Assembly: GCA_963765245.1 (NCBI GenBank)
Contig: CAVXVP010000006.1
Location: 124,093-188,092 of the forward strand
Source: an uncultured Chloroflexia bacterium
Lineage (GTDB): Bacteria > Chloroflexota > Limnocylindria > Limnocylindrales > CSP1-4
Length of the DNA: 64,000 bases
Direction: 5' to 3'
The first letter of the stretch is position 1. Each line of letters opens with the position of its first letter. The notes under the pieces were generated by a model. The model saw nothing but the letters and a program-made list of their open reading frames with translations, had not been told where the DNA came from and did no database searches. Made by a program: the position numbers and the translations under genes. Below, one piece after another: positions 2,678 through 49,590 of the stretch.

Positions 2678-5738
<3,061 letters not shown>

Positions 5739-43740: not shown

Positions 43741-43756
43741 ACGGCTGCGTTGATCG

Positions 43757-44062
43757 TCAGCGCCTCGACGCCACCGGTGACGCCGCGTTCGTGTTGAACG
43801 CCCGGAGCATGACCTCGTGGCGGCCGCCGAGCGAGTAGGTGGCGATGATCGGCACGCCCGCGGTGGCCTGGTGCTTGCCGTGGCGGTCGGTCACCTCGAA
43901 GCGGCCGTTGCCGAGGTTGCGGACCTTGAGGTCCGAGGTCTTGGACTTGTCGGCGACGACGTCGGTCACGTGCTTGTCGTTGGGGGCGTGGACGAAGCTG
44001 AGGCCGACCAGCCCGCCCGTAGCCGAGGTTGGCGGTGTGGATGACGTCACCACTGCCAGCAC
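43757..44062 (-). pseudogene. stand-alone copy of the C-terminal domain of the vWA/FN3 membrane protein (displaced 3' gene end; direct repeat of 47053-47380)
   Basis: MLAVVTSSTPPTSATGGLVGLSFVHAPNDKHVTDVVADKSKTSDLKVRNLGNGRFEVTDRHGKHQATAGVPIIATYSLGGRHEVMLRAFNTNAASPVASRR. About 90% nucleotide identity to the 3' 320 bp of the gene at 47053-48877, in the same orientation. Confidence 0.55.
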
Positions 44063-44142
44063 GTAGCCACGCCGTCGGGGACCCAGAACAAGGTTAATGT
44101 GATGGTGACTTTCGTCCTCGACGACTACGCAGAAGGGGCACG

Positions 44143-44649
44143 ATGAGCGACTCGACCGTGGACCCGACCCTCGACCGGCTGCTCCGCCATATGGGCTGGG
44201 CGAACGCCACGATGTTCGATTGGCTCAGCAGGCTGTCGGACGAGGCGCTCGGGCTGTCGTCCCCTCGCAACGAGTGGACAGCGTCGATGATCCTGGCGCA
44301 CTTGGTCGATTCGGCCGGCGGGTATGCCTCCCGTCTCGAGGGAGTGCCGCGTCAGGCTCGCATCGAGCCGCCGACGACGATCGCGGGGCTGGCCGAGCTT
44401 GCGGCATCGTGCGCCGCGTTCGACGCTCGCCTCCGATCACAAGCAGCCGTGCCGGACGGGCCTTCTCCCTCGCCGAAACCGGAGAACCCGACGCGGGCGC
44501 GATCGACCGTCCTCGCCCAGGCGATCCATCACGCGACCGAGCATCGCGCCCAGATCGCCGGCGCTCTCGCCGCGCACGGGATCGACGCGATCGATCTTGA
44601 CGAGCTCGACGTGTGGGCGTACGGCGACGCGGAGGGTCTCGGGGCGTAG
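44143..44649 (+). CDS. DinB-family (DinB_2) protein, intact
   Basis: MSDSTVDPTLDRLLRHMGWANATMFDWLSRLSDEALGL...ASMILAHLVDSAGGYASRLEG...AIHHATEHRAQIAGALAAHGID shows the His-rich DinB four-helix pattern. Confidence 0.65.
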   Translation: MSDSTVDPTLDRLLRHMGWANATMFDWLSRLSDEALGLSSPRNEWTASMILAHLVDSAGGYASRLEGVPRQARIEPPTTIAGLAELAASCAAFDARLRSQAAVPDGPSPSPKPENPTRARSTVLAQAIHHATEHRAQIAGALAAHGIDAIDLDELDVWAYGDAEGLGA

Positions 44650-44661
44650 CTTTTGGGCGTC

Positions 44662-44696
44662 TTGACAAACGTACGTTAGAACGTACAGTTCACCGC
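44662..44696 (+). promoter_or_regulatory. promoter with GTAC-repeat operator upstream of the Phd/RelE module
   Basis: cTTGACAaACGTACGTtagaACGTACAGTtcacc has a -35 TTGACA and a 17 bp spacer to TACAGT. The palindromic ACGTACGT and the repeated ACGTAC resemble Phd/YefM operators. Confidence 0.35.
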
Positions 44697-44972
44697 GTGA
44701 AGACGATTCCCATCAGCGACCTCCGGCAGCGCGTGGCCGATGTCATCGACGACGTCCAGTCGAGTGATGAACCGACCGTGGTGCTCCAACGCTCCCGCAA
44801 GGCTGCGTACATCGTCAATCCCGAACGGTATGAGCGCGACCAGGCCGAATTGAGCGCGCTGCGTCGCGCGATCTTCCTCACCGAGGTTCGCGAGGCGGAA
44901 GCCGAGTACAGCGCGGGCGACGCCCAGCGGTTCGACGACGTCGAGCAGCTCCTCGACGAGCTCCGGCGCTGA
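44697..44972 (+). CDS. type II antitoxin, Phd/YefM family
   Basis: VKTIPISDLRQRVADVIDDVQSSDEPTVVLQRSRKAAYIVNPERYERDQAEL... Confidence 0.7.
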   Translation: MKTIPISDLRQRVADVIDDVQSSDEPTVVLQRSRKAAYIVNPERYERDQAELSALRRAIFLTEVREAEAEYSAGDAQRFDDVEQLLDELRR

Positions 44973-44973
44973 C

Positions 44974-45228
44974 TTGCGGCTGACGGCCTCCAGTCGCTTC
45001 CTCCGAAGGGCGAAGAAGCTGCGGGAGCCGCAAGCATCGATGCTCCGCGCGGCCCTGCGGCGTTTCGCGGCCGAACCGCTCGACCCGCTGTTGCGAACAC
45101 ACAAGCTGAAGGGCGAGCTCGATCGGTACTGGGCGTTCAGCGTCGATGACGACCTGCGAGTGCTGTTCCGCTGGGAAGGTGACGAGGCGTTCCTGGTCGC
45201 TCTCGGCACGCACGACGAGGTGTACTGA
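44974..45228 (+). CDS. type II toxin, RelE/ParE superfamily
   Basis: TTG start 2 nt after the antitoxin stop. ...RFLRRAKKLREPQASMLRAALRRFAAEPLDPLLRTHKLKGELDRYWAFSVDDDLRVLFRWEGDEAFLVALGTHDEVY. Confidence 0.65.
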   Translation: MRLTASSRFLRRAKKLREPQASMLRAALRRFAAEPLDPLLRTHKLKGELDRYWAFSVDDDLRVLFRWEGDEAFLVALGTHDEVY

Positions 45229-45319
45229 CTCCCGACTTCGATGGCTTGAAGAAGGTCTGCGTCCTTGCCGCCGCCGAGCTCGCCGCGCAGTAACTACCAG
45301 TTACCCGGCTCCTGCCATC

Positions 45320-46084
45320 ATGGGTTGGATGGTCACGGTTCTTACAACCGCTCAGGTGGACAGACTTGGCGAGCGGCTGCGTGCCGGAGATCAGATCTCC
45401 GAGGCCGACCTAATTAGTCTTCAGGGCTTCCGCGCCGAACACGAAGAGGCACTCGTGGAAGTTCAGCGCCGAATCGAACGAGCGCTTCCTGGCATCGATC
45501 AGACAGCTCGCATCAAGACCATCCAGACGCTAGTCGACAAACTCCGTCGCCAACCGACCAAGCTGAGTCGCGTCCAGGACATCGCCGGCGTTCGAATCGT
45601 CCAGGAGATGGACCTGACGGAGCAGGATCAGATAGTGAACGCACTCCAAGGTGAGTTTCCACCGGCGCGGACCTTCGATCGACGAATCGAGCCGTCGTTT
45701 GGCTACCGAGCAGTTCACGTCGTGGTTCGCATCGGGCGCTGTTCTTGCGAGATCCAGGTCAGGACGAGGACGCAGCATCTTTGGGCCGAAGTCGTAGAAA
45801 GACTTGCGGATCAGTGGGGACGTCAAATTCGATACGGAGGTGTGCCGGATGACCCTGCGCGACCGATCGCGGATACCACGCGCGCCGAGCTCTGGGATGT
45901 CGTGGTCGGCATGTCGGACACTGTCCACCGCATCGAAGAGGTTGCGGCCGACCAGAACTTCGGCGTCGACGCTGGTGAGGCACCGGAAGGCTTCGATCGG
46001 GCAGAGGTTGAGGAGGCACGTCGCGCGATGCGGGAAGTCCTGGCCGAATTGGTGGAGTTCCTTGATCGTGGCGCAGCGCTATAG
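45320..46084 (+). CDS. RelA/SpoT-domain (small alarmone synthetase-like) protein; candidate toxSAS
   Basis: DIAGVRIV...GYRAVHVVVRIGRCSCEIQVRTRTQHLWAEVVERLADQWGRQIRYG is the RelA/SpoT synthetase-fold core (G/RxK...D, beta-strand GY.A.H..V, E.Q.RT..Q..WAE). About 59% GC, inside the TA island. Palindrome GTAACTaccAGTTAC lies just upstream. Confidence 0.65.
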   Translation: MGWMVTVLTTAQVDRLGERLRAGDQISEADLISLQGFRAEHEEALVEVQRRIERALPGIDQTARIKTIQTLVDKLRRQPTKLSRVQDIAGVRIVQEMDLTEQDQIVNALQGEFPPARTFDRRIEPSFGYRAVHVVVRIGRCSCEIQVRTRTQHLWAEVVERLADQWGRQIRYGGVPDDPARPIADTTRAELWDVVVGMSDTVHRIEEVAADQNFGVDAGEAPEGFDRAEVEEARRAMREVLAELVEFLDRGAAL

Positions 46085-46102
46085 TCCACCGAGGAGGTTC
46101 GG

Positions 46103-46333
46103 GTGCCGCAATTCCTGATCGTGTACAACCAGCTCACGGGCAACGTCGAGCTAACTGAATACGCCGACGACGCGCGGCATGCCGCGCTTGAACGCCGATT
46201 TGCCCTCGAGCGCGAACATCGCCTCGAGCCGCACATCGAGGTGGTGCTGTTAGGCGCCCGGTCCGAGGACGTGCTGAAGCGCACGCACGCTCGCTACTTC
46301 AAGACCGTTCGGGAGCTTCTCGAAAGCGCCTAA
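46103..46333 (+). CDS. small hypothetical protein immediately downstream of the RSD gene (candidate cognate antitoxin/partner)
   Basis: RBS GAGGAGG 6 nt upstream of the GTG start. 76 aa: MPQFLIVYNQLTGNVELTEYADDARHAALERRFALEREHRLEPHIEVVLLGARSEDVLKRTHARYFKTVRELLESA. Confidence 0.45.
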   Translation: MPQFLIVYNQLTGNVELTEYADDARHAALERRFALEREHRLEPHIEVVLLGARSEDVLKRTHARYFKTVRELLESA

Positions 46334-46368
46334 GGAACGTATTCGACTTCATCGAGCGGCTTAGATAT

Positions 46369-46392
46369 CCTTACATCACGGTCAATGTAAGG
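46369..46392 (+). promoter_or_regulatory. palindromic operator overlapping the vapB RBS
   Basis: CCTTACATcacggtcaATGTAAGG is an 8 bp perfect inverted repeat ending in the Shine-Dalgarno AAGGAG. Confidence 0.3.
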
Positions 46393-46404
46393 AGAACGCC
46401 CGTC

Positions 46405-46653
46405 ATGGAGATCAGCGCTCGGCTGAGTTCGAAGGGTCAGGTCACGGTCCCTCGCGCCGTGCGTGACGCCCTCTCACTCGAGGAGGGTGATCGGCTCGTC
46501 TTCCGCGTCGAGGGCGACCACGCGATCCTGGCCCGGACCGCGGACCTGCTCGCTTTGGCCGGCTCGGTCACCGTGCCGGCCGCAAAACGTGGGGCGCCGT
46601 GGGCGAGGGTGCTCGCCGAGACCCGGCGAACGCGAGCTGCGAAGCCGGGATGA
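46405..46653 (+). CDS. AbrB/MazE/SpoVT-type antitoxin (VapB-like)
   Basis: MEISARLSSKGQVTVPRAVRDALSLEEGDRLVFRVEGDHAILART... (swapped-hairpin beta-barrel motif). Confidence 0.7.
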   Translation: MEISARLSSKGQVTVPRAVRDALSLEEGDRLVFRVEGDHAILARTADLLALAGSVTVPAAKRGAPWARVLAETRRTRAAKPG

Positions 46654-47046
46654 CCGCGTTCGTCGATACGAACATCCTGATCCGACATCTCACCGGCGAT
46701 CCGCCTGCGCCAGGCGACGCGAGCCACGCGTTTCCTCGCGGAAGCCGATGAGCTCTTGCTGCCCGACCTGATCCTTGCCGAGATCGCTTATGTCCTGGAG
46801 TCGTTCTATGAAGCGCCTCGGCCGCAGGTCGCCGCGAGCCTTCGAGCGGTCCTCGCCTTCCCGCCGATCACGGTCGTGGACGCCGAGCTCGCGCAACGGG
46901 CGGTCGAGGTCTATGACGTCCACAGGCTCGACTTCGCCGAGGCGTATCTCGTCGCGTGCGCAGAACGGAGTGGCATCGGAGTCGTGGCGTCGTTCGATCG
47001 CTCGATCGACCGGGTCGGCACTGTCGAGCGGGTGGAGCCCCGCTGA
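46650..47046 (+). CDS. PIN-domain toxin VapC (one frameshift near 46710)
   Basis: MTAFVDTNILIRHLTGDPP then shifts to ...LLLPDLILAEIAYVLESFYEAPRPQVAASLRAVLAFPPITVVDAELAQRAVEVYDVHRLDFAEAYLVACAERSGIGVVASFDRSI, with the conserved acidic residues of PIN. Confidence 0.65.
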
Positions 47047-47052
47047 GGACCC

Positions 47053-48877
47053 TCAGCGCCTCGACGCCACCGGTGACGCCGCGTTCGTGTTGAACGCCCG
47101 GAGCATGACCTCGTGGCGGCCGCCGAGCGAGTCGGTGGCGATGATCGGCACGCCCTCGGTGGCCTCGTGCTTGCCGTGGCGGTCGGTCACCTCGAAGCGG
47201 CCGTTGCCGAGGTTGCGGATCTTGAGGTCGGCGGTCTTGGTCTTGTCGGCGACGACGTCGGTCACCTGCTTGGACTCGGGGGCACGGACGAAGCTGAGGC
47301 CGACCAGCCGCCCGTAGCCGAGGTTGGCGGTGTGGATGACGTCGACCACGGCCAGCACGTAGCCGCGCCGTCGGGAGCGCAGCAGCGTCACGATGATCAT
47401 GGCCAGCCCGCCCACCAGCGCGACGCCGAGGACCACCAGGAACGGCGCGAGGATCGGGGTGCACTCGAGCGCCGTCCCGCACGGCCTGAAGGTGTCCGAG
47501 ACGGGTGACGCGTCGCTCGTGCCGATGGTGTTCTCGGCGAACGCGCGACAGACGTATTCGGTGCCGTTGGTCAGGCCGTCGATCTCGGCGTCGGATCGGA
47601 GGTCGACGCGACATCGACGGTGACCGGCCAGGTCGCGCCGCCGTCGTTCGAGCACTCGTAGCGGAAGCCCGAGATGTCGCCCGACGCCTGGGCGCGACGC
47701 CGACGCGGACGGCCTCGTTGAGCGCCGCGACCGTCGGCTTGCCGGGGGCTGCCGGTTTCCCGGTCGGGGTGACGGCGGCTGACACCGGCGTCCACGGACC
47801 CTGCGAGCTCGGGCCGATGGCGGCCACCTCACAGCTGTAGGCGGTGCCGTTGGTCAGGCCCTCGACGACGGCCGTGCGATCGAGCGAGACGCCCTCGGTC
47901 GATTCGATCCAGGTGCCGTCGCCGGTTCCGCAGCGGACCTTGTAGTCGACGATCGGCGGGGCGCTGGCGGTGCCGGCGGGAGCGGGCCAGGCCAGCTCGA
48001 CCTTGCCGTCGCCGGCTGTGGCCTGGATGCCGGTCACGGCGGGGATCGCCGGCGGCGGGGTCGGTGCGGGCGTCGGCGGGAGGACGGCCGTGAACGTGCA
48101 CGTGGCGTCCTGGAGCGCGACCGCGACCGCGGTGCCGGCCTGCTCGGCGGTCTCGAACACGGTCTGCGGCCAGTCGAAGGTCGCGCCGCTGACGCAGGCC
48201 GGCATGTCCTTGATGATCTTCATCTTGTTGAGCCCGGCCTCGAGCGCGGCCCGGTCCTTTGCGGCGAGACCCATCCCGACCGGCAGGATCGCGACCGGCG
48301 AACGGCTCCCGAACAGGCGATCGATCGTGGGCTGGACGCGGCTGACGGGGACGCCCGGGACGTCGTGCTTGCCGTCGGTGAACATGATCAGGGCCGGGCG
48401 CTCGGCGTCGGCCGGGAGGTGCTTGGCGGCCTGCCTCGAGCGCCGGACGTAGTTGGTGTCGGTGCCGATCTTCTTGGTCAGCGCCTTGTCGAGGCCCTTG
48501 CGGTAGGCGGCGGCCAGGCTCCGCAGGCAGTCGGCGAACTTGCCGACGGCGACCGGGTCGTTGAGCAGCTTCAGGTCCGTGCAGCCCGTGTAATCGGCGG
48601 CCCTCGTCGCGAACTGGATCATGCTCACGGTCGTGTCGCCGGCGACGAGGTCGGCCGACGTCTCGTCGACGCGTGCCGCCATGCTCTCGAGCGCGGCGGC
48701 GAATCGGTCGCGGTTCGCCTTGTCGCGGAGGATCGAGGCCGAGTAGTCGAGGTCGATCACGACGTCGGACTTGTCGGGCCCCGCGGCGCGCGTGGTCGTC
48801 GTAAGGCCCCCGCTGAACAGCAGGGACCCGACGACCATCACAAGGGCGGCGCGCATGGCGAGACGGCGGCGACTCAT
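47053..48877 (-). CDS. vWA-domain / tandem fibronectin-III / single-TM protein with uncharacterised C-terminal domain (2 frameshifts)
   Basis: Signal peptide MSRRRLAMRAALVMVVGSLLFSGG. vWA-like DVVIDLDYSASILRD...ALIMFTDGKHD. Two FN3-like repeats (...ELAWPAPAGTASAPPIVDYKVRCGTGDGTW...GLTNGTAYSCEVAA and ...ISGFRYECSNDGGATWP...GLTNGTEYVCRAFA). TM ILAPFLVVLGVALVGGLAMIIVTLL. About 110 aa tail ...RLVGLSFVRAPESKQVTDVVADKTKTADLKIRNLGNGRFEVTDRHGKHEATEGVPIIATDSLGGRHEVMLRAFNTNAASPVASRR. Confidence 0.6.
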
Positions 48878-49012: not shown

Positions 49013-49252
49013 ATGCCCGAGATCTCACGCTTCTTCGGGATCGTCATCCAGATGTACGTCGACGACCATTTGCCGGCACATTTTCACGCTCGACATGCCG
49101 GGATGGACCTGGTGCTCGAGATCGGTTCGCTTGCGATCATCCGGGGCCGGCTTTCGCCCCGAGCACACGCTCTCGTGGTCGAGTGGGCGTCGCTGCACAT
49201 GGACGAACTTCGCGCGAACTGGGACCTGGCGAGAGCGCCGGCCTCCCGTTGA
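49013..49252 (+). CDS. DUF4160-domain protein
   Basis: MPEISRFFGIVIQMYVDDHLPAHFHARHAGMDLVLEIGSLAIIRGRLSPRAHALVVEWASLHMDELRANWDLA shows the hallmark ISRFYGIxIxMYxDDHxPPHFHA. Confidence 0.65.
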   Translation: MPEISRFFGIVIQMYVDDHLPAHFHARHAGMDLVLEIGSLAIIRGRLSPRAHALVVEWASLHMDELRANWDLARAPASR

Positions 49253-49284
49253 GGCGCATCGAACCATTGAGATAGCATCCGAAG

Positions 49285-49590
49285 ATGCTTCGCATTCGAT
49301 CCGCAACGGCGCTCACCGGCCGGCGGCTCCGACTCACCCTGACCGATGGCTCGATCGTCGAGCGCGACGTCCAGGATCTACTTTGGGGTCCGGTCTTCGA
49401 TCGTCTTCGCGTGGACGACGCATTCTTTGGTCGAGTCCGGGCGCGATACGGCACGGTGACTTGGCCCGGAAATGTCGACATCGCTCCGGAGACGATGATC
49501 TGGGACGGACCTGACCCGTCCGACGGCAGCCAGCGTCCCGCTGAATTCCTTCGACTTCACAGTCCTTCCCGCGAAGGACAGCCTGGCTAG
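49285..49590 (+). CDS. DUF2442-domain protein (partner of DUF4160)
   Basis: MLRIRSATALTGRRLRLTLTDGSIVERDVQDLLWGPVFDRLRVDDAFFGRVRARYGTVTWPGNVDIAPETMIWDG... Confidence 0.65.
   Translation: MLRIRSATALTGRRLRLTLTDGSIVERDVQDLLWGPVFDRLRVDDAFFGRVRARYGTVTWPGNVDIAPETMIWDGPDPSDGSQRPAEFLRLHSPSREGQPG

Follow-up and report, generated by a model that had tools for sequence, protein, structure and literature searches.

A probable PhRel/CapRel-type toxSAS toxin-antitoxin module encoded by two adjacent genes in a cluster of toxin-antitoxin genes

We performed a detailed inspection of two adjacent genes located in a 64-kb stretch of DNA (64,000 nucleotides, referred to below as the window). This analysis revealed that they very probably constitute a bicistronic type II toxin-antitoxin (TA) module of the PhRel/CapRel branch of toxSAS, an assignment based on directly observed features, namely homology and the order of the genes, their conserved occurrence as a pair, the predicted protein folds and the catalytic residues, which are intact. 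The pair represents a new, previously unannotated member of a toxSAS TA family that has already been described and experimentally characterised. A preliminary description of the locus had proposed a TA pair of the toxSAS type, and this proposal is borne out by the identification of CapRelSJ46 as the closest solved-structure relative of the toxin, both by sequence and by fold. The same description had considered the small partner to be an undescribed toxSAS antitoxin and the pairing possibly new. This suggestion has to be abandoned, because the partner is a known ATphRel/ATcapRel antitoxin and a clear homologue of gp30 (ATphRel) of Mycobacterium phage Phrann. PhRel and CapRel have a homologous antitoxin in common, and the pairings PhRel:ATphRel and CapRel:ATcapRel have been described and validated (PMC7229694).

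The features of the locus and of its nearest neighbours are as follows (positions are those of the window).

44697..45228, plus strand: genes of a Phd/YefM antitoxin and a YafQ/RelE-family toxin (Pfam hits), a neighbouring module given for context only
45290..45304, no strand: palindrome GTAACT-acc-AGTTAC, located ahead of the toxin ATG and separated from it by 15 nt; a role as operator is unsupported
45320..46084, plus strand: toxSAS toxin gene, encoding a RelA/SpoT synthetase of 254 aa of the PhRel/CapRel clade
46091..46097, plus strand: Shine-Dalgarno sequence GAGGAGG of the antitoxin gene, 5 nt before its GTG (read from the sequence)
46103..46333, plus strand: antitoxin gene, encoding a protein of 76 aa that is homologous to ATphRel/ATcapRel, resembles a pseudo-zinc-finger in its fold and has a conserved H62-A-R-Y65-F66 motif
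46405..47046, plus strand: genes of a MazE/AbrB-type antitoxin (46405-46653) and a frameshifted PIN/VapC protein (approximately 46650-47046) (Pfam hits), given for context only

Toxin and antitoxin genes

The toxin ORF, as read from the sequence, extends from the ATG at 45320 to a TAG at 46082-46084, and its translation contains the motifs GVRIV, GYRAVHVVV and EIQVRTRTQHLWAEVVERLADQWG. A second in-frame ATG, at position 45329, would give a protein of 251 aa, which is the length of many homologues; the two starts differ by three residues and the choice between them does not affect the interpretation. No obvious Shine-Dalgarno sequence precedes the gene, and a search of the 91-nt spacer upstream of it revealed no sigma-70-like promoter.

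The only Pfam domain identified in the 254-aa protein is RelA_SpoT (PF04607; E 9.9e-15, residues 64-157), and the same search found no HD, TGS or ACT domain, in line with the preliminary description of a RelA/SpoT-domain protein lacking hydrolase, TGS and ACT domains. The protein starts with a toxSYNTH RelA/SpoT synthetase core (approximately residues 1-175), which is followed by a C-terminal tail that is helical and variable, and its AF2 model (pLDDT 94) shows the SYNTH core with helical extensions. The residues required for catalysis, which are invariant among 40-45 aligned homologues, have been retained: (i) D87, located in the sequence QDIAG and corresponding to D90 of FaRel2, (ii) G128-Y129 of the G-loop, which align with Y143 of gp29 and Y155 of CapRelSJ46, and (iii) E144, Q146 and R148, which belong to an unbroken E144-x-Q-x-R-T motif. 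Substitution of Y155 in CapRelSJ46 abolishes activity. The active site, of the RelA/SpoT pyrophosphokinase type, is intact in its catalytic residues.

Several comparisons were used to place the toxin within the RSH proteins. When a phage collection was searched, gp29 of phage Phrann was among the best matches, and a direct pairwise comparison gave 38% identity over 186 aa (E 1e-27). The best sequence match in the PDB was CapRelSJ46 (7ztb/9erv), and the same entries came first when the toxin model was compared with solved structures using Foldseek (E 8e-10), followed by RelP and RelQ, with FaRel2 and Tas1 scoring far lower. The toxin also matches the N-terminal part of the PADLOC model PDC-S33 (E 1.2e-24). 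Since CapRelSJ46 matches this model from end to end (7e-87), PDC-S33 can be regarded as the CapRel model. The NCBIfam equivalog of RelQ (YjbM; NF053588), for which the cut-off is 320 bits, gave a score of only 23.3, which agrees with the earlier view that the protein is not a housekeeping RelQ/RelP enzyme.

By sequence as well as by fold, the RSH proteins to which the toxin is most closely related are PhRel/CapRel. Its identity to any characterised toxSAS reaches only 24-38%, so that it could act on a different substrate (other tRNAs, or a nucleotide). A rough NJ tree, whose references included no labelled unfused CapRel, placed the toxin together with gp29 in a large unfused cluster and CapRelSJ46 in a separate clade, with similar distances (0.68 vs 0.72). 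The formal label may be either PhRel or CapRel.

The antitoxin ORF begins with a GTG at 46103, 18 nt past the toxin stop codon, and ends at 46333. The preliminary description had pointed to this 76-aa ORF and its strong ribosome binding site (RBS), and both features were found as described. The protein shares 39% identity with Phrann gp30 over 72 aa, i.e. along its full length (pairwise E 2e-9), and 40% identity with the product of a small ORF of phage WST1. Jimmy et al. (2020) demonstrated that gp29:gp30 (PhRel:ATphRel) is a valid TA pair, with a toxin that is toxic when expressed and is neutralised by its partner, and that the components form a complex (PMC7229694). The antitoxin also matches phrog_22117 (E 9.5e-12) and positions 266-336 of the 349 positions of PDC-S33 (E 6.6e-7), which correspond to the autoinhibitory domain at the C-terminus of fused CapRel. 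A search of PDB sequences with the antitoxin returned chance matches only (lactaldehyde reductase, E 0.3).

In the AlphaFold model of the antitoxin (pLDDT 88.9), a beta-beta-alpha-beta core precedes short helices at the C-terminus, which carry the motif T61-H62-x-R64-Y65-F66. A Foldseek search with this model placed ATfaRel2 and CapRel's C-terminal domain (two CapRel entries) at the top, with scores that are weak in absolute terms; these matches agree in direction with the sequence evidence. When set beside the domain of CapRel, ATfaRel2 has been described as circularly permuted (PMC11782079). In the multiple alignment the motif is nearly invariant and corresponds to THSRYF of gp30 and to Y352-P-N-Y355-F of CapRelSJ46; within this HxxYF element, neither the second Tyr nor the Phe after it varies, CapRelSJ46 included. 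The YXXY sequence is the neutralisation motif of CapRel and ATfaRel2 (PMC11782079). Its first Tyr is replaced by His in the antitoxin and throughout the group to which it belongs. Because the validated gp30 carries the same replacement, it is probably a trait of the family and not a defect.

Conservation and genomic surroundings of the pair

A scan of GTDB representatives (one genome per species), in which the antitoxin was sought with a profile, yielded 80 loci containing a relative of the toxin. The antitoxin is encoded by a separate ORF, directly downstream and on the same strand, in 59 of these loci, and in 7 others it is present in the reading frame of the toxin, i.e. fused with it. In two cases the contig ends before the antitoxin could be seen, and in the remaining 12 none was detected by the profile. 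In eleven of these 12 loci the toxin homologue is only distantly related (the scan gave identities of 24-38%), the exception being L047 (40%). The junction of the split loci is in most cases a 4-bp overlap or a gap shorter than 20 nt. Lack of conservation of the small ORF beside homologues of the toxin would have spoken against the pairing proposed in the preliminary description; the presence of the antitoxin in 66 of the 80 loci clearly shows the opposite.

In a large protein collection the small protein has 80 homologues, nearly all of which are exactly 76 aa long, and many of these are encoded on contigs whose lengths equal those of contigs with toxin homologues. Two long metagenome contigs (L001 and L002) have a 76-aa gene placed 18-19 nt 3′ of the toxin gene, amid restriction-modification, GmrSD and other TA genes. 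The nearest relatives of the toxin occur in Chloroflexota and Gemmatimonadota MAGs, the best match in the scan of GTDB representatives being a protein of a Chloroflexi MAG (68% identity). The distribution is patchy, and one MAG contains two copies (L008 and L009). These data extend the documented range of bipartite toxSAS of the PhRel/CapRel type to Chloroflexota, Gemmatimonadota, Myxococcota, Acidobacteriota and other lineages.

The mean identity to the proteins of the window, calculated for 50 loci, is 47% for the toxin core and likewise 47% for the antitoxin. By these values the two co-diverge, and the possibility that the antitoxin evolves faster, as the sensor domain of CapRel does, was rejected on this basis. 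The only hypervariable part is the C-terminal tail of the toxin, which is recognisable just in the closest relatives.

The pair is located in a region of reduced G+C content (0.59-0.63 over positions 45200-46400), which is bordered on either side by DNA of 0.64-0.70, with values above 0.70 further to the right. The preliminary description of a low-GC patch situated between TA modules was accurate: the Phd/YafQ genes lie upstream and the MazE/PIN genes downstream. The upstream module is composed of a Phd_YefM gene (Pfam E 2e-11; probable start GTG at 44697) and a gene of a YafQ/RelE-family toxin (44974-45228; E 2e-7), and a promoter-like site is found ahead of this operon, at 44662-44689. In the downstream module the PIN gene is broken by a 1-nt frameshift, visible as a change of frame in the translations. 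Together with two frameshifts in a neighbouring FN3-domain gene, this makes three in the adjoining genes (at about 46710, 47700 and 47790), so the island may be decaying or the assembly may carry indel errors.

The 6-bp palindrome noted earlier upstream of the toxin gene is indeed present, and it was considered as a candidate operator. When the 91-nt spacer was shuffled, 18% of the resulting sequences contained a perfect inverted repeat whose arms measure 6 bp or more; among all windows of this length in the 64 kb the proportion is 35%, and no shared inverted repeat was found in the 130 nt upstream of 18 homologous loci. In view of this chance-level frequency and the lack of conservation, the candidate was rejected.

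The whole group of genes occupies a stretch of about 3 kb (approximately 44088-47051), containing a DinB-family gene and three TA modules. On either side of it lies one copy of a 333-bp direct repeat (43756-44087 and 47052-47383; about 93% identity), which represents the 3′ end of the FN3-domain gene, located on the minus strand; the copy on the right is continuous with the gene, and the one on the left is an orphan fragment. The stretch looks like an insertion downstream of the FN3 gene or into its end. No integrase is present with it, and no phage genes were seen among the immediate neighbours of the pair in the long contig. No Rfam families or tRNA genes were found anywhere in the 64-kb window, which therefore provides neither a tRNA-linked integration site nor an RNA antitoxin.

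Proposed mode of action and alternative explanations

The candidate products listed in the preliminary description, i.e. (p)ppApp, (p)ppGpp and pyrophosphorylated tRNA, can be narrowed by homology, which points to tRNA pyrophosphorylation. By analogy with its characterised relatives, the toxin most likely pyrophosphorylates the 3′-CCA ends of tRNA. PhRel and CapRel inhibit translation specifically (bioRxiv 10.1101/2021.04.30.441581), PhRel binds deacylated tRNA with sub-micromolar affinity (PMC11782079), and the PhRel subfamily is listed among the pyrophosphorylators of tRNA 3′-CCA (PMC11559606). The type of partner points in the same direction. The tRNA-targeting toxSAS are neutralised by pZFD antitoxins via the pyrophosphate-donor site, and for those producing (pp)pApp the neutralising partner is a SAH hydrolase or a Tis1-like domain at the acceptor site (PMC11782079). 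An inspection of the neighbouring genes with Pfam revealed no SAH hydrolase/HD or Tis1-like gene adjoining the toxin gene, whose partner is of the pZFD/ATphRel type.

We infer from these relationships a toxic protein, its neutralisation by the partner, a tRNA substrate and a role in defence, which may be combined as follows. The activity of the toxin would block aminoacylation and thereby stop translation. The antitoxin, translated from its own strong RBS in the 18-nt spacer behind the toxin gene, would most likely bind the toxin directly and occlude its ATP (pyrophosphate-donor) site by means of the C-terminal HxxYF element, the presumed equivalent of YXXY. Release of the toxin upon phage infection, or upon loss of the island, would lead to growth arrest. 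It is likely that the pair serves either in phage defence by abortive infection or in addiction of the small island of genes in which it resides. The gp29:gp30 system has been cited as an example of narrow-spectrum prophage defence (PMC11559606).

It is rather unlikely, although conceivable, that the locus represents a subclade of the Chloroflexota/Gemmatimonadota type, which would differ from the PhRel of Phrann in its tRNA or nucleotide substrate or in its triggering, and would still be a toxSAS TA system. The features behind this reading are the 76-aa antitoxin with an invariant HARYF sequence, a rate of antitoxin divergence no higher than that of the toxin core, and the fast-evolving helical tail of the toxin. 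One possibility in such a subclade is that the variable tail of the toxin forms the sensing surface, unlike in CapRelSJ46, where this is the antitoxin.

Three further explanations of the pair were weighed. The toxin could be a nucleotide-directed enzyme resembling FaRel or Tas1, which forms (pp)pApp, or (p)ppGpp in toxic amounts, depletes ATP and leaves tRNA unmodified. The SYNTH fold is common to all RSH enzymes and RelP and RelQ are the next-best fold matches after CapRel, the toxin shares no more than a modest 24-38% identity with its tRNA-modifying relatives, and alarmone synthesis was the first proposal made for gp29 (PMC7229694). We nevertheless regard this explanation as improbable, since PhRel and CapRel, the nearest characterised relatives, are specific inhibitors of translation that bind tRNA or modify it, the fold search placed Tas1 and FaRel2 far lower than CapRel, and the partner belongs to the pZFD/ATphRel type that accompanies tRNA-targeting toxSAS (PMC11782079), with no HD hydrolase adjacent to it. 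It is extremely unlikely that the toxin gene encodes a housekeeping small alarmone synthetase (RelQ/RelP-like) acting in the stringent response, next to an unrelated or regulatory small ORF. Such an enzyme would account for the PF04607 domain and for weak matches to YjbM/YwaC in NCBIfam and the PDB; against it stand the score far short of the YjbM equivalog cut-off, the TA-like operon kept in 66 of the 80 loci, the homology of the partner to the validated antitoxin gp30, the TA and restriction-modification genes in the surroundings (here and in L001 and L002), and the patchy distribution with two copies in a single MAG.

The pair might also be an inactive relic of a decaying island, with ORFs that are in frame and no longer expressed or functional, as the frameshifts of the neighbouring PIN and FN3 genes, and the lack of a promoter-like site or a Shine-Dalgarno sequence directly upstream of the toxin gene, could suggest. 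This is very improbable: both ORFs are of full length when compared with their homologues and keep every invariant residue, and the antitoxin gene has a strong RBS. Moreover, the nearby frameshifts may be assembly indels, and read-through from the Phd/YafQ operon, starting at the promoter-like site (44662-44689), could drive expression.

Interpreted as a PhRel/CapRel-type module, the locus has slight importance beyond annotation, in that a previously unannotated gene pair receives a label. The large natural set of split and fused variants could aid comparative studies of triggering, including the signal that activates unfused systems of the PhRel type (PMC9712102), a question on which the locus itself offers no special handle.

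Comparison with known toxSAS systems

The pair most closely resembles PhRel:ATphRel (gp29:gp30) of phage Phrann, in which the toxin gene is also placed first and is followed immediately, on its 3′ side, by the gene of an antitoxin of about 70 aa. Both systems have the HxRYF motif at the C-terminus of the antitoxin and the G-loop Tyr in the toxin (Y129 here, Y143 in gp29), and the identity amounts to 38% over the SYNTH core of the toxin and 39% over the full length of the antitoxin. The unfused organisation is the usual one in PhRel, as reported by Zhang et al. (2022) (PMC9712102). The differences concern (i) location, since the Phrann pair is phage-borne and the pair described here lies in a small cluster of TA genes in a long contig, (ii) host lineage, the nearest relatives of the present pair being found in Chloroflexota and Gemmatimonadota MAGs, (iii) the C-terminal tail of the toxin, which is shorter than that of gp29 and unrelated to it in sequence, and (iv) the intergenic gap, of 18 nt here and 7 nt in Phrann.

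The relationship with FaRel2:ATfaRel2 of Coprobacillus sp. D7 (PDB 8PU3) is more distant. The antitoxins have no detectable sequence homology and show 9% identity in the structural alignment, and the fold match of the toxin to FaRel2 is much weaker than that to CapRel.

The fused protein CapRelSJ46 (PDB 7ZTB; PADLOC PDC-S33) contains the toxSYNTH domain that, among solved structures, resembles the toxin most, as well as a C-terminal pseudo-zinc-finger domain, acting as antitoxin and sensor, which is homologous to the product of the small ORF and aligns with it at the YXXY/HxxY-F sequence. Its toxin part, however, shares only about 24% identity with the toxin of the window, and it falls, according to the rough NJ tree, within a different, mostly fused clade. 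To our knowledge, triggering by the phage capsid is known only for CapRelSJ46. Both halves of PDC-S33 are matched at the present locus, where they are parted by the TAG codon at 46082-46084, the 18-nt spacer with its own RBS and the GTG start codon. Since the two parts are thus separate proteins, neutralisation must take place in trans, and activation could involve their full dissociation.

A direct repeat around the toxin-antitoxin genes

The toxSAS pair, composed of the PhRel/CapRel-type toxin and its small antitoxin, is located between the two copies of a 333-bp direct repeat:

43756-44087, direct repeat, first copy
47052-47383, direct repeat, second copy

The copies, which are 3296 bp apart, are approximately 93% identical, with two 1-bp indels between them. 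The repeated sequence corresponds to the 3′ end of a minus-strand gene encoding an FN3-domain protein, and it begins exactly at the stop codon of this gene. The stretch between the copies (approximately 3 kb) contains DinB, Phd/YafQ, the toxSAS pair and MazE/PIN. Since the two copies flank DinB together with the toxin-antitoxin (TA) modules, this arrangement suggests that the stretch is an inserted mini-island lacking an integrase.

Genes adjacent to the toxSAS pair

The following features were recorded in this region:

44613-44972, + strand, Phd/YefM ORF as listed (119 aa)
46650-47046, + strand, PIN/VapC gene, interrupted near 46705-46715 by a frameshift of 1 nt
47053-48877, - strand, gene of the secreted FN3-domain protein, with two frame changes
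49013-49590, + strand, two neighboring genes, one matching DUF4160 (E 3.6e-16) and the other DUF2442 (E 1.3e-8)

The true start of the Phd/YefM gene is probably the GTG codon at 44697, giving a protein of 91 aa, whose Pfam match opens at residue 1. Just 5′ of this codon (44662-44689) lies a sigma-70-like site, TTGACA-16-TACAGT, the only one in 44000-47200.

The N-terminal part of the PIN/VapC protein, MTAFVDTNILIRHLTGDPPA, is encoded in one frame and the remainder, from ...FLAEADELLLPDLILAEIAYVL on, in the next; the gene is either a pseudogene or affected by an assembly indel. Both frame changes of the FN3 gene (near 47790 and 47700) fall within one FN3 repeat. The two genes together show three frame changes in approximately 2 kb, which may represent indel errors of a long-read assembly.

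The pairing of DUF4160 with DUF2442 is often considered TA-like; the pair identified here would enlarge the cluster of small addiction-type modules.

Toxin tail and relatives of the pair

45845-46081, helical C-terminal tail of the toxin (residues 176-254)

The conservation of this tail is far below that of the toxin core or the antitoxin, and it can be aligned in the closest relatives only (31-59% identity, where the core shows 64-73%). The tail is nonetheless predicted with high confidence to form two long helices.

Among the loci encoding toxin relatives (one genome per species), L008 and L009 are two paralogous toxin-antitoxin pairs on separate contigs of one Gemmatimonadota MAG (SMAG_U11755), whose toxins share 66% and 62% identity, respectively, with the window toxin. 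Locus L055 carries two antitoxin homologs (854-1066 and 3274-3483) within 2.5 kb. Toxin and antitoxin homology occupy one reading frame in L024, L027, L068, L070, L074, L076 and L079. The fused L024 (Binatia) and L027 (Anaeromyxobacteraceae) were placed, in a rough distance tree, within an otherwise unfused cluster, consistent with published accounts of repeated fusion and fission.
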